A stretch of 64,000 nt of DNA from Macrostomum hystrix (lineage: Eukaryota; Animalia; Platyhelminthes): contig CATNEN010000039.1 of the NCBI GenBank assembly GCA_950097015.1, positions 1-64,000 on the forward strand, in the 5' to 3' direction. A program made the position numbers and the translations under genes. Positions within the stretch are counted from its first letter, which is position 1. Every line of letters starts with the position of its first letter. This document shows, piece after piece, positions 2,291 to 30,800 of the stretch. The notes beneath the pieces were generated by a model that did not search any database, was not told the DNA's origin, and worked only from the letters and a program-made list of their open reading frames with translations.

Positions 2291-2378
2291 TAAATATAAA
2301 CTCTGAAATCCGAAAATGTGAAATGCAAATCGCAGATAAATTCTTTATTAACGATTCCCAAATTCTTAGTAACAAAGA

Positions 2379-5300
2379 CCCTAACCCTAACCCTACCCTA
2401 ACCCTAACCTAACCCTAACCCTAACCCTAACCCTAACCCTAACCCTAACCCTAACCCTAACCCTAACCCTAACCCTAACCCTAACCCTAACCCTAACCCT
2501 AACCCTAACCCTAACCCTAACCCTAACCCTAACCCTAACCCTAACCCTAACCCTAACCCTAACCCTAACCCTAACCCTAACCCTAACCCTAACCCTAACC
2601 CTAACCCTAACCCTAACCCTAACCCTAACCCTAACCCTAACCCTAACCCTAACCCTAACCCTAACCCTAACCCTAACCCTAACCCTAACCCTAACCCTAA
2701 CCCTAACCCTAACCCTAACCCTAACCCTAACCCTAACCCTAACCCTAACCCTAACCCTAACCCTAACCCTAACCCTAACCCTAACCCTAACCCTAACCCT
2801 AACCCTAACCCTAACCCTAACCCTAACCCTAACCCTAACCCTAACCCTAACCCTAACCCTAACCCTAACCCTAACCCTAACCCTAACCCTAACCCTAACC
2901 CTAACCCTAACCCTAACCCTAACCCTAACCCTAACCCTAACCCTAACCCTAACCCTAACCCTAACCCTAACCCTAACCCTAACCCTAACCCTAACCCTAA
3001 CCCTAACCCTAACCCTAACCCTAACCCTAACCCTAACCCTAACCCTAACCCTAACCCTAACCCTAACCCTAACCCTAACCCTAACCCTAACCCTAACCCT
3101 AACCCTAACCCTAACCCTAACCCTAACCCTAACCCTAACCCTAACCCTAACCCTAACCCTAACCCTAACCCTAACCCTAACCCTAACCCTAACCCTAACC
3201 CTAACCCTAACCCTAACCCTAACCCTAACCCTAACCCTAACCCTAACCCTAACCCTAACCCTAACCCTAACCCTAACCCTAACCCTAACCCTAACCCTAA
3301 CCCTAACCCTAACCCTAACCCTAACCCTAACCCTAACCCTAACCCTAACCCTAACCCTACCCTAACCCTAACCCTAACCCTAACCCTAACCCTAACCCTA
3401 ACCCTAACCCTAACCCTAACCCTAACCCTAACCCTAACCCTAACCCTAACCCTAACCCTAACCCTAACCCTAACCCTAACCCTAACCCTAACCCTAACCC
3501 TAACCCTAACCCTAACCCTAACCCTAACCCTAACCCTAACCCTAACCCTAACCCTAACCCTAACCCTAACCCTAACCCTAACCCTAACCCTAACCCTAAC
3601 CCTAACCCTAACCCTAACCCTAACCCTAACCCTAACCCTAACCCTAACCCTAACCCTAACCCTAACCCTAACCCTAACCCTAACCCTAACCCTAACCCTA
3701 ACCCTAACCCTAACCCTAACCCTAACCCTAACCCTAACCCTAACCCTAACCCTAACCCTAACCCTAACCCTAACCCTAACCCTAACCCTAACCCTAACCC
3801 TAACCCTAACCCTAACCCTAACCCTAACCCTAACCCTAACCCTAACCCTAACCCTAACCCTAACCCTAACCCTAACCCTAACCCTAACCCTAACCCTAAC
3901 CCTAACCCTAACCCTAACCCTAACCCTAACCCTAACCCTAACCCTAACCCTAACCCTAACCCTAACCCTAACCCTAACCCTAACCCTAACCCTAACCCTA
4001 ACCCTAACCCTAACCCTAACCCTAACCCTAACCCTAACCCTAACCCTAACCCTAACCCTAACCCTAACCCTAACCCTAACCCTAACCCTAACCCTAACCC
4101 TAACCCTAACCCTAACCCTAACCCTAACCCTAACCCTAACCCTAACCCTAACCCTAACCCTAACCCTAACCCTAACCCTAACCCTAACCCTAACCCTAAC
4201 CCTAACCCTAACCCTAACCCTAACCCTAACCCTAACCCTAACCCTAACCCTAACCCTAACCCTAACCCTAACCCTAACCCTAACCCTAACCCTAACCCTA
4301 ACCCTAACCCTAACCCTAACCCTAACCCTAACCCTAACCCTAACCCTAACCCTAACCCTAACCCTAACCCTAACCCTAACCCTAACCCTAACCCTAACCC
4401 TAACCCTAACCCTAACCCTAACCCTAACCCTAACCCTAACCCTAACCCTAACCCTAACCCTAACCCTAACCCTAACCCTAACCCTAACCCTAACCCTAAC
4501 CCTAACCCTAACCCTAACCCTAACCCTAACCCTAACCCTAACCCTAACCCTAACCCTAACCCTAACCCTAACCCTAACCCTAACCCTAACCCTAACCCTA
4601 ACCCTAACCCTAACCCTAACCCTAACCCTAACCCTAACCCTAACCCTAACCCTAACCCTAACCCTAACCCTAACCCTAACCCTAACCCTAACCCTAACCC
4701 TAACCCTAACCCTAACCCTAACCCTAACCCTAACCCTAACCCTAACCCTAACCCTAACCCTAACCCTAACCCTAACCCTAACCCTAACCCTAACCCTAAC
4801 CCTAACCCTAACCCTAACCCTAACCCTAACCCTAACCCTAACCCTAACCCTAACCCTAACCCTAACCCTAACCCTAACCCTAACCCTAACCCTAACCCTA
4901 ACCCTAACCCTAACCCTAACCCTAACCCTAACCCTAACCCTAACCCTAACCCTAACCCTAACCCTAACCCTAACCCTAACCCTAACCCTAACCCTAACCC
5001 TAACCCTAACCCTAACCCTAACCCTAACCCTAACCCTAACCCTAACCCTAACCCTAACCCTAACCCTAACCCTAACCCTAACCCTAACCCTAACCCTAAC
5101 CCTAACCCTAACCCTAACCCTAACCCTAACCCTAACCCTAACCCTAACCCTAACCCTAACCCTAACCCTAACCCTAACCCTAACCCTAACCCTAACCCTA
5201 ACCCTAACCCTAACCCTAACCCTAACCCTAACCCTAACCCTAACCCTAACCCTAACCCTAACCCTAACCCTAACCCTAACCCTAACCCTAACCCTAACCC

Positions 5301-7381
5301 TAACCCTAACCCTAACCCTAACCCTAACCCTAACCCTAACCCTAACCCTAACCCTAACCCTAACCCTAACCCTAACCCTAACCCTAACCCTAACCCTAAC
5401 CCTAACCCTAACCCTAACCCTAACCCTAACCCTAACCCTAACCCTAACCCTAACCCTAACCCTAACCCTAACCCTAACCCTAACCCTAACCCTAACCCTA
5501 ACCCTAACCCTAACCCTAACCCTAACCCTAACCCTAACCCTAACCCTAACCCTAACCCTAACCCTAACCCTAACCCTAACCCTAACCCTAACCCTAACCC
5601 TAACCCTAACCCTAACCCTAACCCTAACCCTAACCCTAACCCTAACCCTAACCCTAACCCTAACCCTAACCCTAACCCTAACCCTAACCCTAACCCTAAC
5701 CCTAACCCTAACCCTAACCCTAACCCTAACCCTAACCCTAACCCTAACCCTAACCCTAACCCTAACCCTAACCCTAACCCTAACCCTAACCCTAACCCTA
5801 ACCCTAACCCTAACCCTAACCCTAACCCTAACCCTAACCCTAACCCTAACCCTAACCCTAACCCTAACCCTAACCCTAACCCTAACCCTAACCCTAACCC
5901 TAACCCTAACCCTAACCCTAACCCTAACCCTAACCCTAACCCTAACCCTAACCCTAACCCTAACCCTAACCCTAACCCTAACCCTAACCCTAACCCTAAC
6001 CCTAACCCTAACCCTAACCCTAACCCTAACCCTAACCCTAACCCTAACCCTAACCCTAACCCTAACCCTAACCCTAACCCTAACCCTAACCCTAACCCTA
6101 ACCCTAACCCTAACCCTAACCCTAACCCTAACCCTAACCCTAACCCTAACCCTAACCCTAACCCTAACCCTAACCCTAACCCTAACCCTAACCCTAACCC
6201 TAACCCTAACCCTAACCCTAACCCTAACCCTAACCCTAACCCTAACCCTAACCCTAACCCTAACCCTAACCCTAACCCTAACCCTAACCCTAACCCTAAC
6301 CCTAACCCTAACCCTAACCCTAACCCTAACCCTAACCCTAACCCTAACCCTAACCCTAACCCTAACCCTAACCCTAACCCTAACCCTAACCCTAACCCTA
6401 ACCCTAACCCTAACCCTAACCCTAACCCTAACCCTAACCCTAACCCTAACCCTAACCCTAACCCTAACCCTAACCCTAACCCTAACCCTAACCCTAACCC
6501 TAACCCTACCCTAACCCTAACCCTAACCCTAACCCTAACCCTAACCCTAACCCTAACCCTAACCCTAACCCTAACCCTAACCCTAACCCTAACCCTAACC
6601 CTAACCCTAACCCTAACCCTAACCCTAACCCTAACCCTAACCCTAACCCTAACCCTAACCCTAACCCTAACCCTAACCCTAACCCTAACCCTAACCCTAA
6701 CCCTAACCCTAACCCTAACCCTAACCCTAACCCTAACCCTAACCCTAACCCTAACCCTAACCCTAACCCTAACCCTAACCCTAACCCTAACCCTAACCCT
6801 AACCCTAACCCTAACCCTAACCCTAACCCTAACCCTAACCCTAACCCTAACCCTAACCCTAACCCTAACCCTAACCCTAACCCTAACCCTAACCCTAACC
6901 CTAACCCTAACCCTAACCCTAACCCTAACCCTAACCCTAACCCTAACCCTAACCCTAACCCTAACCCTAACCCTAACCCTAACCCTAACCCTAACCCTAA
7001 CCCTAACCCTAACCCTAACCCTAACCCTAACCCTAACCCTAACCCTAACCCTAACCCTAACCCTAACCCTAACCCTAACCCTAACCCTAACCCTAACCCT
7101 AACCCTAACCCTAACCCTAACCCTAACCCTAACCCTAACCCTAACCCTAACCCTAACCCTAACCCTAACCCTAACCCTAACCCTAACCCTAACCCTAACC
7201 CTAACCCTAACCCTAACCCTAACCCTAACCCTAACCCTAACCCTAACCCTAACCCTAACCCTAACCCTAACCCTAACCCTAACCCTAACCCTAACCCTAA
7301 CCCTAACCCTAACCCTAACCCTAACCCTAACCCTAACCCTAACCCTAACCCTAACCCTAACCCTAACCCTAACCCTAACCC
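2379..7381 (-). repeat. Telomeric repeat array (CCCTAA)n / (TTAGGG)n, ~5.0 kb
   Basis: About 830 near-perfect hexamers; single-base deletion variants near 2391-2410, ~3360 and ~6508; C-rich strand on +, i.e. left-arm telomere polarity. Confidence 0.99.
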
Positions 7382-8470: not shown

Positions 8471-9588
8471 GAGAGCCGATTCCTATGAGAGCCGATTCCT
8501 ATGAGGGCCGATTCCTATGAGAGCCGATTCCTATGAGGGCGGATTCCTTTGAGAGCCGATTCCTATGAGGGCCGATTCCTATGAGGGCCGATTCCTATGA
8601 GAGCCGATTCCTATGAGTGCAAATTCCTATGAGAGCCGATTCCTATGAGAGCCGATTCCTATGAGAGCCGATTCCTATGTGAGCCGATTCCTATGAGAGC
8701 CGATTCCTATCGGTTCCTATGAGAGCCGATTCCTATGAGAGCCGATTCCTATCGGTTCCTATGAGAGCCGATTCCTATGAGAGCCGATTCCTATCGGTTC
8801 CTATGAGAGCCGATTCCTATGAGGGCCGATTCCTATTAGGGCCGATTCCTATGAGAGCCGATTCCTATGAGAGCCGATTCCTATGAGAGCCGATTCCTAT
8901 GAGAGCCAATTCCTATGAGAGCCGATTCCTATGAGAGCCGATTCCTATGAGAGCCGATTCCTATGAGGGCCGATTCCTATGAGAGCCGATTCCTATGAGG
9001 GCCGATTCCTATTAGGGCCGATTCCTATGAGAGCCGATTCCTATGAGAGCCGATTCCTATGAGGGCCGATTCCTATGAGAGCCGATTCCTATGAGGGCCG
9101 ATTCCTATTAGGGCCGATTCCTATGAGAGCCGATTCCTATGAGAGCCGATTCCTATGAGAGCCGATTCCTATGAGAGCCGATTCCTATGAGAGCCGATTC
9201 CTATGAGAGCCGATTCCTATGTGAGCCGATTCCTATGAGAGCCGATTCCTTTGAGAGCCGATTCCTATGAGGGCCGATTCCTATGAGACACGATTCCTAT
9301 GAGGGCCGATTCCTATGAGGGCCGATTCCTATGAGAGCCGATTCCTATGAGAGCCGATTCCTATGAGAGCCGATTCCTATGAGAGCCGATTCCTAAGAGA
9401 GCCGATTCCTATGAGACCCGATTCCTATGAGAGCCGATTCCTATGAGGGCCGATTCCTATGAGACACGATTCCTATGAGAGCCGATTCCTATGAGAGCCG
9501 ATTCCTATCGGTTCCTATGAGAGCCGATTCCTATGAGACCCGATTCCTATGAGAGCCGATTCCTATGAGAGCGGATTCCTATGAGGGC
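8471..9588 (+). repeat. 16-bp satellite GAGAGCCGATTCCTAT (telomere-proximal block)
   Basis: About 70 tandem units, including a CCTATCGGTT short variant. Confidence 0.97.
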
Positions 9589-12500
9589 CTTTATGGAAAG
9601 TCAAAGACATTGACGGATAACAAGTCAAACTCATGGAATTCTAAAAAAAGCCACAACTTTCTGTCCTGACCATCTAGAGGCGCCGGACTGGCGCCTCTAG
9701 ACTCGGGGCGTCAACCTCTAGTCGAGAAATGTCATTTCCAACATTGCCCACCAATGACGGAAATTTCGACCTTGGCAAATTTTCGACTTAATATTGCTCT
9801 TTGACAAGTTAGGTAGCCGCTCAGAGCCCAAGTTGGCTCCCAAAAGAAAATCTCGGGGGACTCAACCGGAATCTATAGAGCATCGCCAGGCCTTTCGAAC
9901 GACACCAAAATCAGTTCCCTAGGACCTCGGGAACCGTCTCGAATCGGCCCGAGAAGGATGTAGGAAGCATTGACTTTATGGAAAGTCAAAGACATTGACG
10001 GATAACAAGTCAAACTCATGGAATTCTAAAAAAAAGCCACAACTTTCTGTCCTGACCATCTAGAGGCGCCGGACTGGCGCCTCTAGACTCGGGGCGTCAA
10101 CCTCTAGTCGAGAAATGTCATTTCCAACATTGCCCACCAATGACGGAAATTTCGACCTTGGCAAATTTTCGACTTAATATTGCTCTTTGACAAGTTAGGT
10201 AGCCGCTCAGAGCCCAAGTTGGCTCCCAAAAGAAAATCTCGGGGGACTCAACCGGAATCTATAGAGCATCGCCAGGCCTTTCGAACGACACCAAAATCAG
10301 TTCCCTAGGACCTCGGGAACCGTCTCGAATCGGCCCGAGAAGGATGTAGGAAGCATTGACTTTATGGAAAGTCAAAGACATTGACGGATAACAAGTCAAA
10401 CTCATGGAATTCTAAAAAAAGCCACAACTTTCTGTCCCGACCATCTAGAGGCGCCGGACTGGCGCCTCTAGACTCGGGGCGTCAACCTCTAGTCGAGAAA
10501 TGTCATTTCCAACATTGCCCACCAATGACGGAAATTTCGACCTTGGCAAATTTTCGACTTAATATTGCTCTTTGACAAGTTAGGTAGCCGCTCAGAGCCC
10601 AAGTTGGCTCCCAAAAGAAAATCTCGGGGGACTCAACCGGAATCTATAGAGCATCGCCAGGCCTTTCGAACGACACCAAAATCAGTTCCCTAGGACCTCG
10701 GGAACTGTCTCGAATCGGCCCGAGAAGGATGTAGGAAGCATTGACTTTATGGAAAGTCAAAGACATTGACGGATAACAAGTCAAACTCATGGAATTCTAA
10801 AAAAAGCCACAACTTTCTGTCCTGACCATCTAGAGGCGCCGGACTGGCGCCTCTAGACTCGGGGCGTCAACCTCTAGTCGAGAAATGTCATTTCCAACAT
10901 TGCCCACCAATGACGGAAATTTCGACCTTGGCAAATTTTCGACTTAATATTGCTCTTTGACAAGTTAGGTAGCCGCTCAGAGCCCAAGTTGGCCTCCCAA
11001 AAGAAAATCTCGGGGGACTCAACCGGAATCTATAGAGCATCGCCAGGCCTTTCGAACGACACCAAAATCAGTTCCCTAGGACCTCGGGAACTGTCTCGAA
11101 TCGGCCCGAGAAGGATGTAGGAAGCATTGACTTTATGGAAAGTCAAAGACATTGACGGATAACAAGTCAAACTCATGGAATTCTAAAAAAAGCCACAACT
11201 TTCTGTCCCGACCATCTAGAGGCGCCGGACTGGCGCCTCTAGACTCGGGGCGTCAACCTCTAGTCGAGAAATGTCATTTCCAACATTGCCCACCAATGAC
11301 GGAAATTTCGACCTTGGCAAATTTTCGACTTAATATTGCTCTTTGACAAGTTAGGTAGCCGCTCAGAGCCCAAGTTGGCTCCCAAAAGAAAATCTCGGGG
11401 GACTCAACCGGAATCTATAGAGCATCGCCAGGCCTTTCGAACGACACCAAAATCAGTTCCCTAGGACCTCGGGAACTGTCTCGAATCGGCCCGAGAAGGA
11501 TGTAGGAAGCATTGACTTTATGGAAAGTCAAAGACATTGACGGATAACAAGTCAAACTCATGGAATTCTAAAAAAAGCCACAACTTTCTGTCCTGACCAT
11601 CTAGAGGCGCCGGACTGGCGCCTCTAGACTCGGGGCGTCAACCTCTAGTCGAGAAATGTCATTTCCAACATTGCCCACCAATGACGGAAATTTCGACCTT
11701 GGCAAATTTTCGACTTAATATTGCTCTTTGACAAGTTAGGTAGCCGCTCAGAGCCCAAGTTGGCCTCCCAAAAGAAAATCTCGGGGGACTCAACCGGAAT
11801 CTATAGAGCATCGCCAGGCCTTTCGAACGACACCAAAATCAGTTCCCTAGGACCTCGGGAACTGTCTCGAATCGGCCCGAGAAGGATGTAGGAAGCATTG
11901 ACTTTATGGAAAGTCAAAGACATTGACGGATAACAAGTCAAACTCATGGAATTCTAAAAAAAAGCCACAACTTTCTGTCCCGACCATCTAGAGGCGCCGG
12001 ACTGGCGCCTCTAGACTCGGGGCGTCAACCTCTAGTCGAGAAATGTCATTTCCAACATTGCCCACCAATGACGGAAATTTCGACCTTGGCAAATTTTCGA
12101 CTTAATATTGCTCTTTGACAAGTTAGGTAGCCGCTCAGAGCCCAAGTTGGCTCCCAAAAGAAAATCTCGGGGGACTCAACCGGAATCTATAGAGCATCGC
12201 CAGGCCTTTCGAACGACACCAAAATCAGTTCCCTAGGACCTCGGGAACTGTCTCGAATCGGCCCGAGAAGGATGTAGGAAGCATTGACTTTATGGAAAGT
12301 CAAAGACATTGACGGATAACAAGTCAAACTCATGGAATTCTAAAAAAAGCCACAACTTTCTGTCCTGACCATCTAGAGGCGCCGGACTGGCGCCTCTAGA
12401 CTCGGGGCGTCAACCTCTAGTCGAGAAATGTCATTTCCAACATTGCCCACCAATGACGGAAATTTCGACCTTGGCAAATTTTCGACTTAATATTGCTCTT

Positions 12501-19983: not shown

Positions 19984-21755
19984 AAATGGCTTTGAGATTT
20001 CACTAGTGGAACCTAGTATATTATTTTTGTTATGTAATTGGTTTGTATCCTAATTGATTTTTATTGAACATATTTTAAATGAATATATTTTTATAGAAAA
20101 TATGTATAAAATCTTAGCTTAGACGTCTATCTACACCAAAGAGTACTAGACTTAGACTTAGAGTTGAAAAGTGGAGGTTGGACTTTTGGCAATTGAAACA
20201 ATTATCCTTATTGGTTTTTATTGAACATATTTTAAATGAATATATATTTATAGAAAATATGTATAAAATCTTAGACGTCTATCTACACCAAAGACTACCA
20301 TTGACTACCTTTAGATAGAATGCTACTAACCTATAAACTTTAGACTCCTAGCATAGTTAAAATCATTCTTTAAGGATTTGGAGCTAAAAGACGTTACTTT
20401 TTTTACTTAGACTTAGACTTAGACTTGAAAAGTGGAGCTTGGACTTTTGGCAATTGAAAGCAATTTCTTAGACTTAGATTTAGACTTAGAGTTGAAAAGT
20501 GGAGCTTGGACTTTTGGCAATTGAAAGCAATTTCTTAGACTTAGACTTCAACTTAGAGTTGAAAAGTGGAGCTTGGACTTTTGGCAATTAAAAGCAATTT
20601 CTTAGACTTAGACTTAGAGTTGAAAAGTGGAGCTAGGACTTTTGGCAATTGAAAGCAATTTCTTAGACTTAGACTTCAACTTAGAGTTGAAAAGTGGAGC
20701 TTGGACTTTTGGCAATTAAAAGCAGTTAAAAGCAATTGATAAAATGGCTTTGAGATTTCACTAGTGGAACCTAGTATATTATTTTTGTTATGTAATTGGT
20801 TTGTATCCTAATTGATTTTTATTGAACATATTTTAAATGAATATATTTTTATAGAAAATATGTATAAAATCTTAGCTTAGACGTCTATCTACACCAAAGA
20901 GTACTAGACTTAGACTTAGAGTTGAAAAGTGGAGGTTGGACTTTTGGCAATTGAAACAATTATCCTTATTGGTTTTTATTGAACATATTTTAAATGAATA
21001 TATATTTATAGAAAATATGTATAAAATCTTAGACGTCTATCTACTCCAAAGACTACCATTGACTACCTTTAAATAGAATGCTACTAACCTATAAACTTTA
21101 GACTCCTAGCATAGTTAAAATCATTCTTTAAGGATTTGGAGCTAAAAGACGTTACTTTTTTTACTTAGACTTAGACTTAGACTTGAAAAGTGGAGCTTGG
21201 ACTTTTGGCAATTGAAAGCAATTTCTTAGACTTAGACTTAGACTTAGAGTTGAAAAGTGGAGCTTGGACTTTTGGCAGTTGAAAGCAATTTCTTAGACCT
21301 AGATTTAGACTTAGAGTTGAAAAGTGGAGCTTGGACTTTTGGCAATTGAAAGCAATTTCTTAGACTTAGACTTCAACTTAGAGTTGAAAAGTGGAGCTTG
21401 GACTTTTGGCAATTAAAAGCAATTTCTTAGACTTAGACTTAGAGTTGAAAAGTGGAGCTTGGACTTTTGGCAATTGAAAGCAATTTCTTAGACTTAGACT
21501 TCAACTTAGAGTTGAAAAGTGGAGCTTGGACTTTTGGCAATTAAAAGCAATTTCTTAGACTTAGACTTAGAGTTGAAAAGTGGAGCTAGGACTTTTGGCA
21601 ATTGAAAGCAATTTCTTAGACTTAGACTTCAACTTAGAGTTGAAAAGTGGAGCTTGGACTTTTGGCAATTAAAAGCAATTTCTTAGACTTAGACTTAGAG
21701 TTGAAAAGTGGAGCTTAGACTTCTGGCAATTAAAAGCAGTTAAAAGCAATTGATA
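19984..21755 (+). repeat. AT-rich compound repeat: ~758-bp duplication containing 49/55-bp subrepeats (CTTAGA)2-3-GTTGAAAAGTGGAGCTTGGACTTTTGGCAATTGAAAGCAATTT
   Basis: AAATGGCTTTGAGATTTC starts at 19984 and again at 20742; the second copy has more subrepeats. Confidence 0.9.
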
Positions 21756-22283: not shown

Positions 22284-23547
22284 ATGGCAACCATCCTTGA
22301 TATATTGCGAGTGGGGCCGCTGCCTCTCGATCGTATTATGGGCCGCCCATTGGCTCCCTTGCAAATGTGCCCAATTAATAGTGCCTGCTTTATCACCTGT
22401 AAAGCGAAGGACGTCGTGCGGCTGCTCTGCCCGTGCCTTAGAAATACCCAAGCTGCCGGCGCATCAGGCAAAAGCATGGCATATACATCAGGGGATGCTG
22501 TAAGTCTGTATTTGATCTGCTCTGAAATGTAAATGTAAATGTCTTTTACAACCATATTGATGTTATTATTATTATTGTAGTTAATAATTTTAATATTAAT
22601 TTTATTATTTTAAAAAATTGGATATAAACGAATTTTAATTTAATTCCATTTAATTCCAAAAGTCGCAGCGTAGTATAGCCCTGGATAGCCCTAGAAGCAT
22701 AGCCCTGGATTTCTTAGACTTAATAAGTAAAACTTGGACTTTTGGCAATCAGAAGTCAAATCCCTAAATTTCTTAGACCTAAAAAATTAAACTTGGACTT
22801 CTGGCTGTCGAAAGTCAAAGCCCTCGATTTCTTTGACTTGAAAAGTGAAAGCCTTAACTTTGACTTGCCTTTCTCCTTCAGGTGCTTCAGTACTTTCCGG
22901 ATCAGGCATACTGCCTGTATCGGCACGGAGTCGGCAGTTTAAAACAACTGCTCAGAGCCTTGGGCAGGCCTGCCGCCCCAGCCGCCCCTGCCGCCCCTGC
23001 CGCCCCTGCCGCTCCTGCCGTGCAAGGCAATGCCCCAACGCCTGCTGCAAGGGCGTCTGGGGCAATATCTCAAGCACTTAATGTGTTTACGCTTGAGGCC
23101 GGGGAGCACTTCGGCGGACTCCTTCCGCCATTATCACAGCCGGTAGCAGAAATGCTACGGGCTGTGATTATGTGTCTGGAAAGGAGGGACGCGCAACGGC
23201 TCCTATGTCTGGCGAAGGCCACTGCCGAGGTGACGGCGCTGGCTATTGGTGCAGCTGCTGCATCAGCTGCAGCTGATGCCCCTCCTCATCCCGCCAACGC
23301 CGATCCCGCCGACGCCGATCCCGCCGACGCCAATCCGGCCGATCCCGCCGACGCCGATCCGGATGCTACAATTCCCGCCGACGCCGATCCGGATGCTACA
23401 ATTCCCGCCGCCCTACCACCGGACCAGTTTGGCGGGGCCGGTCCCGGCCCGTCGGCGGTAGCGGAGGACGAGGAGGAAGTAGAAGAAGAGCAGCAGCCGA
23501 GGGCCAAGAGGCAAAATACTGGCCGAAGGAAGAAGCGACGTCGCTAA
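22284..23547 (+). CDS. Predicted 2-exon gene join(22284..22499,22882..23547), 293 aa; BRO-N-like N-terminus, Ala/Pro/Asp low-complexity linkers, acidic patch, basic NLS-like C-terminus
   Basis: Donor GCT|GTAAGT at 22500 and acceptor TTCTCCTTCAG| at 22881 join two ORFs in phase 0; upstream acceptor-like TTTGTTTGCAG at 22262; motif AKDVVRLL..RNT; tail PRAKRQNTGRRKKRRR. Gene model is fairly good, domain call tentative. Confidence 0.6.
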
Positions 23548-23560
23548 ACTATTTTAAGTC

Positions 23561-24670
23561 TCAAAGAACTTGCACATTAGTTGCAACTAAATTACTAATA
23601 GTTGCATTATCTTCCTGCGCGGCAATCAGTCGCTCTTTTGTTACCGGCATGTGAAGAAAGTCAGTGAGCAGTTTCCGACAGGGAATTTCTTCTTCGTCAT
23701 CACTGAAGTAGTCTCTCGCATCTTCATATAACCCTTCATCTTCACTGTCACCATCATAGGTGTCTTCGATAATGTCTTCTACTGCGTCCTCAAAGATCTC
23801 CGTATCAGCGTAGCCACTCTCAATTAGGCTATTTTTATCACTCAAATTTTCAATTTCATCTTCAATAAGACGCCAGTCTTCGAGACTACCTCGAGACACA
23901 TAATGATCCGATGACATCTCCAACTTTTCGCTTCCTGTTTCAACTACTTCTTCCTCTCCCTTGGAAACTTCCTCGTAGACTTCTTCATGTTCAGATTCAG
24001 CTCCTTGCTCAATAGACTCGACTGCTGATAAGTTAATTTCCGCTTCTTTCTCATCAACCTCAGGCTCATACTCAAATTCTTTGTATTCTTCGTCAAGCTC
24101 AGCTTCAGACTTGTTACTCTCTTCATCAGCCGCAACTTCGGATTCTTCTAATTCTTCATCAGGCTCAAATTCAGATGCTCTTATTTCAAATTCTCCTTCA
24201 TCAGATTCAGCTTCGGATTCTTCTTCATCATACTCAGCTTCGAGTTCTTTAGACTCCTCTTCATCAGACTCAACTTCGGATTCATTAAATTCTTCTTCAT
24301 CAGACTCAGCTTCATTAAACTCTTCTTCATCAGACTCAGCTTCGGATTCTTTAAATTCTTCTTCATCAGACTCAGCTTCGGATTCATTAAATTCTTCTTC
24401 ATCAGACTCAGCTCCGGATTCATTAAATTCTTCTTCATCAGACTCAGCTTCATTAAACTCTTCTTCATCAGACTCAGCTTCGGATTCTTTAAATTCAGAC
24501 TCTTCTGAGTCCTTTTCTTTTTCTTCTTCACTACTACTATCTCTGAGCAATCTTTCACATTTCAATGCTGAGTTGATGATATTCTGTAAATTATCTGAGG
24601 CCAAAATTTCGCTAATAGTTACTCTAGAGGATCGGGGCCTCTCTGCTCGATCCTCGCTTTTCAGTTTCCC
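23561..24670 (-). CDS. ORF2 in the -1 frame after gag: ~367-aa Glu/Asp/Ser-rich protein with EAESDEEEF(N/K)E(S) repeats; probably expressed as a Gag fusion
   Basis: Open frame 23561..24739 overlaps the gag end in the -1 frame; no DSG/DTG protease, YxDD RT or integrase core motif seen. Confidence 0.7.
   Translation of the reverse strand, partial: GKLKSEDRAERPRSSRVTISEILASDNLQNIINSALKCERLLRDSSSEEEKEKDSEESEFKESEAESDEEEFNEAESDEEEFNESGAESDEEEFNESEAESDEEEFKESEAESDEEEFNEAESDEEEFNESEVESDEEESKELEAEYDEEESEAESDEGEFEIRASEFEPDEELEESEVAADEESNKSEAELDEEYKEFEYEPEVDEKEAEINLSAVESIEQGAESEHEEVYEEVSKGEEEVVETGSEKLEMSSDHYVSRGSLEDWRLIEDEIENLSDKNSLIESGYADTEIFEDAVEDIIEDTYDGDSEDEGLYEDARDYFSDDEEEIPCRKLLTDFLHMPVTKERLIAAQEDNATISNLVATNVQVL
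24627..24670 (-). promoter_or_regulatory. -1 programmed ribosomal frameshift signal
   Basis: Heptamer G GGA AAC (24670-24664) directly before the gag TGA; 8-nt spacer; 8-bp stem GAGGATCG/CGATCCTC (24655-24627) with 13-nt loop. Confidence 0.8.
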
Positions 24671-25758
24671 TGCTGCTGATTGGGATTGGCTGATCCAGAA
24701 CTTCGGCAGAACTTGGCAACATGCCCGCTCTTGCCACAACTGAAGCAGATCTGCGGCGGGCGATCCTGTTGCTGCTGCTGCTGATAGTTCTGCTTTTGAA
24801 TGTTTGACTGTTGTCTCTGCTGATAACTCTGCTGCTGATAATTCTGCTGCGGTCTCTGCTGATAGTTCGGCTGCTGATAATTCTGCTGTGGTCTGTGCTG
24901 ATAGTTCTGTTGCTGTTTCGGCTGGTAGTTCTGCTGCTGATAGTTCTGCTGCTGATGGTTCTGCTGATTGTAGTTCTGCGGCTGATAGTTCGGCTGCTGA
25001 TAATTCTGCTGCTGCCGTTGCTGCAAGTTCTGAGTGGCCATCTGGACACTGAGCATGAGTTCTTGCATGGTTCGCTTCTGTTGTTCCAATTCTTCTTGCT
25101 GTTTCAGCAGCATTTCTTCAATCCTGCTATGCTTTCTTTGTTCTGCTTCATCAGTCTTGGCCATCTTCATGCTGACGCCTTTGTGGGACATATTCCACGC
25201 TGTTTCCATGCGTCTCAGCATCCTTCGTGCATCTTGCAGAGTAGCTGGCGCAGCGAAGATAAGTTTTTCTCTAGTCTCAGCCGGAACTTTCACTCCTTTG
25301 ATGAATTGCTCTATTATTTCTTCTTCTCTTTGTTCTGCGGTCATATTCGGGAATGCTCTAGTAGCTAGTTCAATAAGAGCGTCGGAGAAACTTTCTACTG
25401 GTTCATTGCGTCCTTGGCAACGGCTTCTAAATTCTTCCCTAAACTCGGCAGAGCTTCCTGTTCTTCCGAAGCGTTCCACCAGTCTTTCTTTAAATTCTTC
25501 ATAGTCTAGATTGTCCGGCAAGTTCATACGCTGCACTGCGGCAAACGCAGTTGAGAGATCGAGGTTGGCTAGAAGCTCGCGCTTCCTGTGTGCCTCCTCT
25601 ATTCCTTCAGCTTCGCAGCGCTGGTCAAAGGCTGTCAGCCAAATTCTGATTTCCTGATTTGGCGTGTACTTTTGGATTTTGACATGTCTCATCGGTCCTA
25701 GCTCTAACCGATTTCTTAGTTCTTCCGCCAGCATGGCGATTGCATCATTGGCATTCAT
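24661..25758 (-). CDS. gag: Retrotransposon Gag, 365 aa (capsid-like region, coiled coil, Q/N/Y-rich repeats, CCHC zinc knuckle)
   Basis: YEEFKERLVERFG, major-homology-region-like RCQGRNEPVESFSDALIELATRAFP, EQFIKG, knuckle CFSCGKSGHVAKFC, QGN* end. Confidence 0.92.
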   Translation of the reverse strand: MNANDAIAMLAEELRNRLELGPMRHVKIQKYTPNQEIRIWLTAFDQRCEAEGIEEAHRKRELLANLDLSTAFAAVQRMNLPDNLDYEEFKERLVERFGRTGSSAEFREEFRSRCQGRNEPVESFSDALIELATRAFPNMTAEQREEEIIEQFIKGVKVPAETREKLIFAAPATLQDARRMLRRMETAWNMSHKGVSMKMAKTDEAEQRKHSRIEEMLLKQQEELEQQKRTMQELMLSVQMATQNLQQRQQQNYQQPNYQPQNYNQQNHQQQNYQQQNYQPKQQQNYQHRPQQNYQQPNYQQRPQQNYQQQSYQQRQQSNIQKQNYQQQQQQDRPPQICFSCGKSGHVAKFCRSSGSANPNQQQGN

Positions 25759-25825: not shown

Positions 25826-25837
25826 CCGCTGCCACCA
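25826..25837 (-). promoter_or_regulatory. Primer-binding site TGGTGGCAGCGG (complementary to the tRNA-Leu 3' end ...CCGCTGCCACCA)
   Basis: 3 nt downstream of the LTR end ...CTACGACA on the minus strand and ~70 nt upstream of the gag ATG. Confidence 0.8.
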
Positions 25838-25840
25838 AGT

Positions 25841-26438
25841 TGTCGTAGCGCCCCTCTCTTCTTCGTATTCCTCTTATTAATAATTCAAATTCTCCTCTTT
25901 CTAATAGTTCATTTGGAAACTGCCTCTTCCAGATTCCTTACTAATTTACCCTCGGTCACCCGTAGTGACCCGTTAATCCGCACCCTCACTGGGTGGGCTA
26001 ATACAAACTATGATAGTTTGGGTAGCGTGGCTTTCACACGATGTTTTTCTGGTCTCCTGCCAGTGATACTCTAGATTCTTAGATCTAGTTAATTCTGGAG
26101 ACTATGCTCACAGGTATTTCAGACACTGGGTCAGACAATTCGGGCTCTTTGGCCAGTCTGTACTCGGGCTTTCCCCGGATCGGAATGTTCGCAGTTTCCA
26201 CTTACTTTAGAAATAAGTAAGGCTTTGTAAGTTACTCGCGAGGAGAATTGAACTGTTTCTTAATAGGCTCGAAACGGTTAGTTTTTCCCTAAAGATTTTC
26301 CCTTGTATTTATATGAAACTGATTGGATATTCCCAGTATATTCTCAGTATATTTTACCACATTAAAACAAACCATTCGACAGAATATTTAAAAATATTTC
26401 AGGTACCAATTTGAATTTAACGAGTGAGGCCCGTCACA
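25841..26438 (-). repeat. Candidate 5' LTR, ~598 bp (TGTGACGG...CTACGACA)
   Basis: TG...CA termini, adjacent PBS, TATA-like ATATAAATAC near 26305-26314 on the minus strand. Outer boundary inferred because no second LTR is available. Confidence 0.65.
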
Positions 26439-26562: not shown

Positions 26563-26775
26563 CTTGCAGATGCGACCTGCTCTTCAAAGCGTGCTGAATT
26601 CTCTCCCTGTCCCAATTCTTGCAGATGCGACCTGCTCTTCAAAGCGTGCTGAATTCTCTCCCTGTCCCAATTCTTGCAGATGCGACCTGCTCTTCAAAGC
26701 GTGCTGAATTCTCTCCCTGTCCCAATTCTTGCAGATGCGACCTGCTCTTCAAAGCGTGCCGAGTTCTCTCCCTGT
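26563..26775 (+). repeat. 55-bp tandem repeat (TTCTCTCCCTGTCCCAATTCTTGCAGATGCGACCTGCTCTTCAAAGCGTGC(C/T)GA(A/G)); also at 31016-31192 and 36267-36443
   Basis: 3-4 tandem units at each locus; marks the 3' flank of the NTPase-nuclease gene unit. Confidence 0.92.
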
Positions 26776-27532
26776 GCCGCAATTCCTTATTCATCTCACC
26801 TCAATGCACTTTCACCTCAAACGCAATCAACATAATATTGTGCACCACGTGTCATTTTTCTATTTACTCCTTTTTCAGTTATTTGCAGTTATTTTCAAAA
26901 TAGAACATACACAAATTTTATTGAATAGACAAGGGCAAGAATTTTTTGGGTAAGAGGTAATTAGGAGATTTTACATATTCTGCTTTGAAAGAAACAATTA
27001 TAACGAATAATGGCACGCAGTTATTAATACATCTCGAAGCACGACATTTAGTAAAACCTCCAAGGTACAGCGAAAGTGCACAAATGCACCACTCACGAAA
27101 TTCAATAGAATATTTATTTATCGAACGCAAAACATGGGGCTCTATTTTCTAACAGATTCATTTATTTACATTTAGAACATTTATAAGAAACAGCCGGCCC
27201 CACACAACGTTGCATGCGCACTCAGTGTCAGCATTATTATTTTAATGATACAATTGTTTTAATGATCTGTAGTAATGTAATTATAATGTACATATGTAAT
27301 GTAATGTACATATGTAATGTAATGTACATATGTAATTATTTTAATAATATTATAATCCTTTCCAGTTTTGCATTTGTTTTTGCCTATGAAATCAATAAAT
27401 CCAATAAGAACTGCTTGTATTTACGCTCGCAATGTTGTTTTATTGTGCACAAAACATGGAGCATTGTTTTTTTGTTCATTTTTGCTTTAGACTGGAGAAT
27501 GAGGTGAGGGGTGGCTAGGTTGGGAATTGGGT
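26563..27532 (+). other. Diverged, gene-less 3' flank of a third copy of the NTPase-nuclease unit
   Basis: Shares the 55-bp repeats and the blocks ATTGTGCACCACGTGTC, GGCACGCAGTTATTAATAC and ATCAATAAATCCAATAAGAAC with 31016-32100, with indels. Confidence 0.85.
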
Positions 27533-27846: not shown

Positions 27847-30800
27847 ATGCAGATGGCGCAGCCGTCGAAGGTGTGGACCCTGGACGATGTGGTAAGTAAT
27901 AAATATTAACTACTGAATTGCGACATGGTATGACATGAATTCAATGCACATCTTTAATTTGTTCTGCAGAAGCAACTTCTGGAGCACTTTCCATTCGGCT
28001 GCATATCCAGCAGTGGTGAAGAACTCTTTGGTATGCCGAGAAACTTCAGGCATGTTGCTTCGAGACTAACAGCCAATCCACAACTGACGTCGATTGTCAT
28101 GTATACTGGTGCATATCAAAGTGGGAAGACTCTCATTACCAATCTGTTGAAATCGCGATTTGATAAAGATGGCATCCCGTATTGTTCTGTGCCAGATTTG
28201 TCATGTCGGGCAAAAATAACAGAAACTCTACTGACGCTAGGAAATTGCCCTGATCCTAGGAAGTCATATTTTAGAGTTCCAGATTTTGCCGACTACGTGT
28301 TGCATATGGGTTTTCAACGCGAGAAGTTTAATCTTAAGCACCTTGCTATGAAGTTTCGTGAAGGTGAACGCGCTCCTATCCTGAGCAGGCAACAATCGCC
28401 ACCGTTGGCGATCTTCATCTATGATGAGACCACTAAGGTCGATACCACTCTTGGTTTTCGCGGGAGATCTGGCAGTGATCATATGTTGTATGATACCTCG
28501 CAGGCTTCGCTGCCGCCAGCGGCGGAACTTTTCTTTTGTGAGAGTGAAGCGCCCGTTAAAAGCAATTCGGTTCCTTTCCCATTAAATGCGACCACTGAAT
28601 CGGATAATTGTTTTTACTCGTTAAATCCGGAACAAAATATTTTCGGCAGATTTTGTCGCTGTCTTCTAGAATCCATGGACGGCAGCGGAAGAAGTTCTGT
28701 ACTGTTCTGCACTAGCCAGCTGTATTTCCCACAGTCCCAACAGGGTCTCAGTTCTTGGAATGGCCAATATGGTTTTTCTGGATCCGATCGCCAATACATA
28801 TGCAGGTACCTATCACCGCCAAGCATGCTTTGTTCCAAACACATCGAGCCAAATGACAAGACTCCGTGCAAAGCATCCAACTGTGTTGCTCGTTTTGTCC
28901 GAAAGAAACTTAAGCCTATCATTATTCAGGCTCGCGCTGCAAACATCGAAATCACTGAGGAAAATTGCCATACGTTGGTGATTGTGGGAATGTACCTGCT
29001 CAGCTCAGTCTACGATGCCTTCACGACGTTTCTAAACAGGTTGAACGATGTGAGCGCTTGTAAAACAGGTGCTAACAATTTCAATGGTATGCTCTCAGTA
29101 GCAGAGGAATGCATGCTAGGCACTTTGAAATCTAAGAAATGTCACAGAGGTTTGGAAAGGACTCTGCTCGTCACCTGTGGAGAGAACTCTCCTGACCGCA
29201 TTCGACTTCTAGCAAAGTTGGTCGTCGCAATTCTAACGAGTTATCCAGTTGACACTGGCCGCTTTGTGGTGAGAGAAGCACTTCGGAATTCGTTGTTCAG
29301 CCTCTCTGAGCCCTGCGACCTGTCCAGTGGCAAGATTCTGCCGCCTTTCACGGATTCTGTTTTTGCTTCCACTCAGTTTATCGTCCGGCCGGATTTCTGC
29401 CTCCTGAAGCTCTGCATTGAGATGATTCTGAACGCAAAGCCACGGATCCCATCGCGATTCAGGAGACAGATTGAATACGATATCAATAACATGAAGCCCA
29501 TTCTGACGCAACGTGATAAATGCCGACAAAGTTCTGGCACAGTGGCTGGCAACCAGTTTGAACGTGTCATGATCTCGAGGCTGCGCCTGATCCTCCGGAT
29601 GCTGCACCTTTCGGAGGTCAGATTTAATGAGAAAGAGAGTCCATCGCTATGCTCACTATTACACTGGGAGATTGTTGCATCGACCAACGTGATCTCTGAT
29701 CCGGACGACAGTGCGTCCTTGTCCGCGACCGCGACCTCACCTGATCCAGACAACACAGTGTACCCTGACGACACAGTGGATTCTGATCCAGATGATGCAG
29801 ATGATCCAGATGATGCAGCGCAGCACGTCCTCATGCCGCTTGGCGGCAGTATGTCTCCTGCTGTGAATTCAGTCCAATGTTCTGGTGATGCTGTGACATG
29901 GAGGAGCATTCAACGTAGCGCTAAAGTGCTGCGCTCTGCTCTGACAGCTACAGACGGAAGAGCTGGGATCCTGCTTGTCTCATCGGCTAATTGCAGGAGC
30001 AGTTTTTCCGGCGTCGATGTAGTAATGTTCTTTGCTCAGAAGAATCGCGTCGGCATCTACTTCATTGAGAGTAAGTAAATTTATTGCCAATGACAACTAA
30101 AAGAAAATTCGGAAATGAAAATTACCCTTTTAACACACTAACCCCGTGTCTTACATCCATAACAATTCCAGTGAAGTCGAGTGCTTTTGCAAATTCCCGA
30201 TCAACTGCTAAGGTGAAGCTTGATAAGTGCAGTGGATGGGCCAAATCTCTGAAGACTGAAACTGCAAGGGGTCTCGGTGTCGAGGAAGATGTTGTCTCCT
30301 GCATCTATGTCCTTGAGGCATGGAGGATAAGACAGCCTGAAAATCTTACTCTGATCGAGCCATTCGTCCAGTTCCTGTCATCCGACTTGTCCCCGGAACG
30401 ACTGTGTCGCATTCCCTCACTGGCCCTGATTGCGCCTTTGAATTTGATGGTCCACGAGGATTGCCTCATCAAATTAAAGAGGTGGGACTCGGGCACTTTG
30501 AACGAATCGATCGACTCTAACTACGAGAATCTTATTGTGGTAAGTTTGTGTATGGCTACTGCACCAACGAAGGATGTTAAAAATCGCTTGCATTTGAAAT
30601 TGAATGTATTTGTGACATTTTTTAAAATCTACCATTCTTAAATTATCGCCTACATTTGTTCCAGCCGGTGCCGGAGCGACTGACGACTGACGAGCGGTCC
30701 CCAGTGCCAGAAACATTGATTCATGATGAAGTGGAACAACTGAGACAGCAACTGAAGAGGGCGCAGCAGGAGAAGCAGCAGATGGCGAAGCAGCTGAAGG

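Follow-up and report, generated by a model that had tools for sequence, protein, structure and literature searches.

PNMA3, PNMA5, PEG10 and rodent Rtl3 are immobile host genes, conserved across mammals, in which a GGGAAAC heptamer followed by a pseudoknot or stem gives rise to a C-terminally extended Gag (cited portions of PMC11299033 and PMC5009743, where G GGA AAC also ranks among the most shift-prone heptamers); the extension of PNMA3 and PNMA5 is not Pol-like. Plant TR-GAG elements, as described in the cited portion of PMC8704663, contain an intact gag without enzymes and are mobilised by an autonomous relative; they have two long terminal repeats (LTRs) and one open reading frame (ORF). 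For Macrostomum lignano, the cited portions of a survey (PMC12801592; preprint 10.1101/2024.12.18.629116) report 137 families and take reverse transcriptase (RT) domains as the starting point. We here analysed 64,000 nucleotides of Macrostomum hystrix (assembly GCA_950097015.1, contig CATNEN010000039.1, positions 1 to 64,000; hereafter the window), the minus strand of which carries a retrotransposon-like element with a candidate 5' LTR, a gag gene and a predicted -1 frameshift signal that would lead into a long acidic frame (ORF2). As judged from the Gag capsid and the Pol-derived end of ORF2, the element is by origin a Ty3/Gypsy LTR retrotransposon. We favour, with a probability of about 0.45, the reading in which the copy in the window, cut at its 3' side, belongs to a small Pol-deleted sublineage that depends on a helper. 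The features that bear on this reading are as follows.

24661 to 25758, minus strand: gag, 365 amino acids, with capsid, coiled coil, Q/N/Y-rich repeats and CCHC knuckle
24664 to 24670, minus strand: slippery heptamer G GGA AAC, abutting the gag TGA (from the sequence)
24597 to 24655, minus strand: predicted H-type pseudoknot (stem search and shuffles)
23561 to 24664, minus strand: -1 frame ORF (ORF2), 367 codons, a Pol derivative without protease, RT and RNase H
24060 to 24500, minus strand: acidic tandem array (AESDEEEFNE/ESE units), 55% aspartate plus glutamate
23585 to 23809, minus strand: RNase H-integrase linker remnant that includes the pre-integrase helix (phmmer, alignment and shuffles)
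23711 to 23797, minus strand: two FFAT-like motifs in the acidic tract, FEDAVE and YEDARD (pattern scan)
25841 to 26438, minus strand: candidate 5' LTR (read from the sequence, with a motif scan)
25826 to 25837, minus strand: TGG-led site resembling a primer-binding site (PBS), TGGTGGCAGCGG, 3 nucleotides past the LTR end (from the sequence)

In contrast to PNMA, PEG10 and Rtl3, the locus retains LTR- and PBS-like sequence, exists in variants and has an extension that ends in a Pol remnant. It differs from TR-GAG elements in having one LTR-like region and a second, putatively frameshift-accessed and pol-derived ORF of 367 codons.

The gag frame extends from the ATG at 25758 to the TGA at 24661 and ends in QQQGN. 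Residues 20-200 of Gag showed 81% and 78% identity to the sole two matches among 801 candidates, both of which likewise end in GN; the closer one is M. lignano A0A1I8IYI7 (P0001). This homolog scored 0.90-0.95 against Retrotrans_gag and Ty3_capsid clusters, with a TM score of 0.75 to a PNMA model. The AlphaFold model of the window Gag was of low confidence (pLDDT 51, pTM 0.25); a fold search with it gave no match at E<=0.001, and its top five matches were PNMA2 and Arc capsids at non-significant values (E>=0.02). A sequence search of the PDB yielded two matches, both attributable to chance, and the zf-CCHC match in Pfam (E=0.003) fell short of the cut-off. The protein thus combines a Ty3/Gypsy-type capsid with a CCHC knuckle, the family assignment resting on the 81%-identical homolog given that the window's own model is of low confidence. 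The PNMA-like capsid fold of the homolog and, provisionally, of the model is a likeness to PNMA. The window Gag itself was absent from the protein collection by exact look-up, and a weak search found no fused Gag form of 640-2000 amino acids among 1119 candidates. The Gag repeat region (24778-25011, minus strand) is Q/N/Y-rich (QQQNYQQPNY), with a prion-like composition, and is far longer than in either homolog.

The heptamer at 24670-24664 lies in the correct phase for a -1 slip from gag. GGGAAAC is unique in the element and, among the six heptamers of XXXYYYZ type between 26440 and 23561, is the last within gag. Downstream of it, after a spacer of 8 nucleotides, 8 bp can pair perfectly as a stem (24655-24648 with 24634-24627), a length attained in 3 of 2000 shuffles. 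Heptamer, spacer and stem had all been proposed by an earlier inspection of the letters alone (the sequence-only reading), and sequence and shuffles bear them out. The stem as proposed was not the complete structure, however, since it forms stem 1 of a predicted H-type pseudoknot with a 6-bp stem 2 (24641-24636 with 24602-24597; loops of 6, 1 and 24 nucleotides). The 14 bp of the two predicted stems (8+6) were reached in none of 2000 shuffles, and this is the sole such site in 2780 windows taken from the element. With a heptamer in phase, a spacer within 5-9 nucleotides and a stem or pseudoknot downstream, the locus contains a predicted programmed -1 frameshift site. In another M. lignano family (last consensus in supplementary file 5 of PMC12801592), CAG GGA AAC was found by eye shortly upstream of a protease-like DTG; that family has a complete pol, and a search with short motifs showed no relation of its sequence to the window. 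Given its presence in this family and its use by PEG10, PNMA and Rtl3, G GGA AAC is probably an ordinary gag-pol signal.

After the slip, ORF2 contains no stop over 367 codons; the counts for the other two frames are 12 and 93, and none of 5000 base shuffles stayed open. It consists of 30% glutamate, 12% serine and 9% aspartate, with a net charge of -118, in agreement with the earlier description of an E/D/S-rich frame open for ~367 codons. The predicted Gag-ORF2 fusion would comprise 365+367 = 732 amino acids, the size previously estimated at ~730. Units of the array measure 27-42 bp, mainly 30 and 36 bp instead of the 30/33 bp first reported, and every one is a multiple of 3 and in frame. 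Decayed units are free of stops, even though glutamate codons, 30% of ORF2, are one transversion from a stop. The nucleic-acid-mimic or histone-chaperone-like role suggested for the acidic tail is a conjecture from its composition.

The last 123 residues of ORF2 were compared by phmmer with 1.84 billion representative proteins, and two matches were obtained. The better (E=4.9e-7) is a 1358-residue M. lignano Pol whose RT, RNase H, H2C2 and rve domains follow the canonical order, and nine of the ten members of its cluster are named and near-identical; the M. lignano Pol sequences designated P0003 and P0007 below are PAA58172.1 and PAA49551.1, respectively. The second match, P0004 (E=6.6e-4, 24% identity), is an unrelated repeat protein and was dropped as chance. 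The end of ORF2 and the Pol linker are identical at 27 of 49 positions, with the last ~75 residues of ORF2 resembling P0007 residues 773-843, and YEDARDYF and CRKLLTD are common to the two. The match exceeded all of 1000 shuffles, also when the 42 non-acidic residues alone were considered. In P0007 this linker lies between RNase H (ending at 720) and the zinc finger (first His at 905) and contains 38% aspartate plus glutamate; homology ends 62 residues ahead of that His. The likeness of the last residues to an 'L..AQ..D..L' helix, noticed in the sequence-only reading, therefore reflects real homology to the Pol linker. That reading had taken the acidic protein to stand 'instead of Pol', which no longer holds: because its end, at least the last ~75 residues, matches the RNase H-integrase linker, ORF2 is a pol derivative. 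In particular, the tail is derived from the Pol of an element with the order protease, RT, RNase H, integrase. Atlas leads for the ORF2 tail were all below 0.9, Integrase_H2C2 clusters accounting for two of the five listed.

The 709 residues of P0007 between the protease DTG and the matched linker are absent from the window, so at least 709 residues of Pol are missing in frame. A tblastn search of the 64-kb window with the full Pol recovered the linker piece and nothing else, ORF2 lacks a D[ST]G protease motif, and Pfam matches to ORF2 were not obtained. The absence of protease, RT, RNase H and integrase core, already stated from the letters, was upheld; these are the domains expected of an autonomous Ty3/Gypsy element and the point on which the window differs from the M. 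lignano Pol family. Within ORF2, neither the initial 45 codons nor the array nor the middle part resembled Pol more than shuffles did. The distance from slip site to YEDARD amounts to 313 codons in the window, compared with a 77-residue linker in P0007. No longer relative of the ORF2 tail was detected among 307 candidates in a weak search that missed P0003 itself, no Pol with a near-identical tail was found in either this search or that of 1.84 billion representatives, and P0013 (42 amino acids, P0003 cluster) showed no similarity to the window.

The two motifs of the form [FY]EDAx[DE] in the acidic tract have a counterpart pair in the P0007 linker (YEDASD and YEDARD, residues 784-803). Two such motifs arose in 2 of 20,000 shuffles, for a pattern picked after it had been seen. 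The VAP-binding FFAT-like consensus is (D/E)(D/E)FEDAx(D/E) in the cited portion of PMC4068158; E-I-FEDAVE and G-L-YEDARD fit its core and miss at the residue ahead of the aromatic. The pair may serve a retrotransposon protein for binding VAP and, being common to a multi-copy full-length Pol, may offer a lead on particle docking at VAP of the endoplasmic reticulum or nuclear envelope. Narrow phrase searches of the open-access literature returned no paper on FFAT motifs in retrotransposons and none on an acidic RNase H-integrase spacer.

Parts of the element were present in eight DNA or untyped sequencing runs from two studies, four of which hold at least half of the element's sampled words (0.52-0.78). 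No RNA run is listed among those with the element, which bears neither way on its expression. Variants were compared over 258 bases around the frameshift (24503-24760) in four of the eight runs. In run X2 the window form of the gag/ORF2 junction was covered by two overlapping contigs with no differences. Run X1 contained three contigs with an ORF2-type start, differing from the window at 0, 10 of 121 and 20 of 137 bases; depth was ~75 per ORF2-type contig compared with 510-560 (~7x) for the other continuation, which is a hint and not a copy number. For the variant with 20 differences (85% identity), the 17 listed fall into 8 synonymous codons and 6 with replacements, most of them conservative, and none creates a stop. 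The ratio of nonsynonymous to synonymous rates (dN/dS) is then ~0.15-0.21 (Fisher p 0.006-0.001), and acidic residues continue in frame into the loose end of this variant. For the variant with 10 differences (92% identity), the eight listed comprise 1 synonymous and 5 replacement codons (p=1.0). These data make the ORF2-type start and its acidic onset old, and one of the two comparisons shows them to be constrained. As regards independent insertions with the same deletion, the evidence consists of the three ORF2-type variants in X1 within the 258 compared bases.

In the four runs compared, the differences listed for variants leave the heptamer and both stems untouched. The deeper contig with the other continuation, seen in X1 and X4, departs from the window directly past stem 1, with 11 of the next 25 bases matching, and the last five of its six stem-2 bases are nevertheless in register (aligned by hand; hypergeometric p ~0.03). 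The variant comparison thus supports the predicted pseudoknot. Beyond the compared bases, the ORF2-type contigs of X1 may lead to integrase, as in an RT-less lineage, or to protease, as in a normal subfamily with an acidic spacer. The sequence-only reading had itself named a normal pol in related copies and stops in the acidic frame of most copies as signs against it: the relative P0007 does have a normal pol, with a short acidic linker, yet the compared -1 stretch of the variants is free of stops.

At the 5' side, the candidate LTR ends in CGACA at 25841 and starts with TGTGAC at 26438 or TGTCG at 26381. The boundaries of this LTR are estimates, because the window holds no second LTR copy. 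The region contains a TATA-like box at 26313 and CCAAT at 26326, and a motif scan of it found no canonical heat-shock element. A TG...CA region with TATA is followed by the PBS-like site, but no second LTR in the window confirms the two as LTR and PBS. This site would be of the tRNA-Leu type; the window contains no tRNA gene.

At the 3' side, homology to Pol reaches as far as 23585, and the frame ends ~7 codons further on, at 23561. The ORF2 stop codon is separated by 13 bp from that of a converging gene.

22284 to 22499 and 22882 to 23547, plus strand: converging neighbour gene in two exons (293 amino acids), not part of the element

Near the end of ORF2 there is no purine tract of 11 or more that could serve as a polypurine tract (PPT), and the window copy accordingly does not show the combination of two LTRs, PBS and PPT that characterises TR-GAG-like elements. 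The copy is, on this sequence evidence, cut at its 3' side just ahead of the integrase zinc finger. With integrase and second LTR absent from the window, the stop codon and free acidic C-terminus are probably an accident of this copy. The polyanionic tail that had been proposed for a fraction of Gag subunits may therefore, in its free C-terminal form, be peculiar to the cut copy.

On the favoured reading, ribosomes would slip at G GGA AAC, as in a parent that made Gag-Pol by the same means. An old in-frame deletion would have joined the spacer behind the pseudoknot to a linker that was already acidic, and tandem duplications in frame would then have lengthened this linker. The fusion of uncut members would continue into integrase, which is probably still fused (Gag-acidic spacer-integrase), with protease and RT supplied by an autonomous relative. 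The 732-residue acid-tailed product of the window copy, if translated, would be a by-product of a copy unable to transpose. The earlier proposal of a non-autonomous element or a domesticated capsid is thus retained in its first part, protease, RT and RNase H being gone in frame and variants with an ORF2-type start being present; the second part is disfavoured by the LTR- and PBS-like sequence and the several variants.

A more far-reaching version, which we consider unlikely, is that of a long-lived animal LTR lineage without protease, RT and RNase H, in which a selected pseudoknot frameshift would provide a fixed fraction of Gag with a ~300-residue polyanionic spacer, two FFAT-like motifs and, in uncut copies, an integrase of its own. 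Equally doubtful is the associated picture of a parasite that borrows reverse transcription but supplies capsid, membrane tether and integration machinery itself.

Several points weigh against the favoured reading. Uncut members carrying integrase or a 3' LTR were not encountered. The 92% variant carries no apparent signal of purifying selection, and the diverged variant may belong to a normal element of full length whose acidic spacer precedes protease, in which case its dN/dS says nothing on a Pol-less lineage. The variants may also be alleles or homeologues instead of transposed copies. Two post hoc placements of the deletion junction, ORF2 27-59 with linker 750-780 (47-507 of 3000 shuffles) and ORF2 201-225 with linker 723-748 (21-48 of 3000), are both too weak to fix its position. 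Finally, the assignment of the window-type Gag (P0001) and the P0007 Pol to one family is our inference from the species label and the linker match.

We rank as nearly as likely the explanation that the window holds a one-off dead copy, in which two GAA-rich acidic stretches recombined in frame and thereby removed protease, RT and RNase H. The source would be a full-length subfamily with both an acidic pre-protease spacer and an acidic linker; a later rearrangement would have cost the copy its integrase and 3' LTR, and the acidic fusion would have no selected role. The 3' cut amid satellites and duplications fits this account, as do the normal pol and 38% acidic linker of the named relative P0007 and the open frames expected of a young copy. 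The weak post hoc resemblance of ORF2 201-225 to the very start of the linker would place the junction inside the array, and an unbranched contig of 1411 bp could hold protease and RT. On the other hand, the account requires an autonomous subfamily, so far unseen, whose protease is preceded by a long acidic spacer; neither the search of 1.84 billion representatives nor the weak one of 307 candidates, which missed even P0003, yielded a Pol close to the tail in the window; and a random deletion is in frame one third of the time.

Domestication, that is, a PNMA3/5-like capsid gene producing a set proportion of Gag with an acidic tail to serve the host, appears very unlikely. Intact gag and ORF2 would be expected in this case, and heptamer and pseudoknot class are as in PNMA3, whose frameshift product has no Pol domain in the cited portion of PMC5009743. 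The locus is not a single fixed one without LTR and PBS: the LTR-like region and PBS-like site are kept and several variants exist. Moreover, the tail is a Pol remnant cut ahead of the zinc finger, the setting is repeat-rich and bears telomere repeats, and no ORF2 orthologue was found among the 1.84 billion representatives.

Less probable again is an autonomous element with a permuted pol, in which linker and integrase would come first and protease, RT and RNase H after, the window copy having lost everything from integrase on. One break would suffice for this, and Gmr1-like elements have integrase before RT. The Gmr1/Osvaldo cluster is well represented in M. lignano (cited portion of PMC12801592). 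The closest Pol is nonetheless in the canonical order of protease, RT, RNase H and integrase, as is the one Gmr1/Osvaldo family examined. No element is known in which integrase precedes protease.

The least probable explanation, an assembly artefact joining unrelated pieces, draws on the satellites and tandem duplications that dominate the window and on a run comparison (24503-24760) confined to the part outside the 3' junction and the array, but is opposed by contigs from two studies that are identical to the window and run through the pseudoknot as far as the start of the acidic stretch, by the 0.52-0.78 of sampled words in the best four runs and by a 1.1-kb frame that is open throughout.

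If the Pol-deleted sublineage is real, a gag-pol frameshift would have been kept in a still-mobile element to dose a non-enzymatic or integrase-only extension, and the element may represent an intermediate between full elements and PNMA3/5-type genes. Such an RT-less lineage would escape RT-seeded annotation, given that the M. lignano survey starts from RT domains. Should the copy instead be a one-off deletion, it would amount to common transposon debris in which a predicted frameshift pseudoknot is well exemplified. A description of the arrangement of Gag, frameshift and acidic pol remnant was not found in the open-access literature, which is limited evidence, and no relatives of the element were found in metagenome or viral contigs.

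The window as a whole is repeat-rich, with several satellites, tandem duplications and telomere-type repeats. A 5-kb (TTAGGG)n array at 2378-7381 (~835 CCCTAA copies) has other sequence on both flanks and is either an interstitial array or a join; satellites of 21, 10, 16 and 385 bp come after it. A 16-bp satellite forms a 23-kb array at 40947-64000, with an inverted block at ~55.9-56.6 kb, and its unit is also present at 8471-9589. The converging neighbour gene (22284-23547) encodes Ala/Pro/Asp repeats and a basic C-terminus resembling a nuclear localisation signal (RRKKRRR), and a Pfam search with its exon 2 gave no match. A ~758-bp tandem duplication at 20040-21740 includes AT-rich repeats of 67/61 bp, and its unit recurs inside the intron of this gene. 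At 27958-30078 (plus strand) lies an ORF of 706 codons; it contains a P-loop-like GAYQSGKT, lacks Pfam matches and is accompanied by a 188-codon ORF. Both belong to a ~5.25-kb unit that is tandemly duplicated, the second copy lying ~5251 bp downstream; the unit contains 55-bp and 20-bp repeats, and parts of it flank the LTR-like region (26563-27500).

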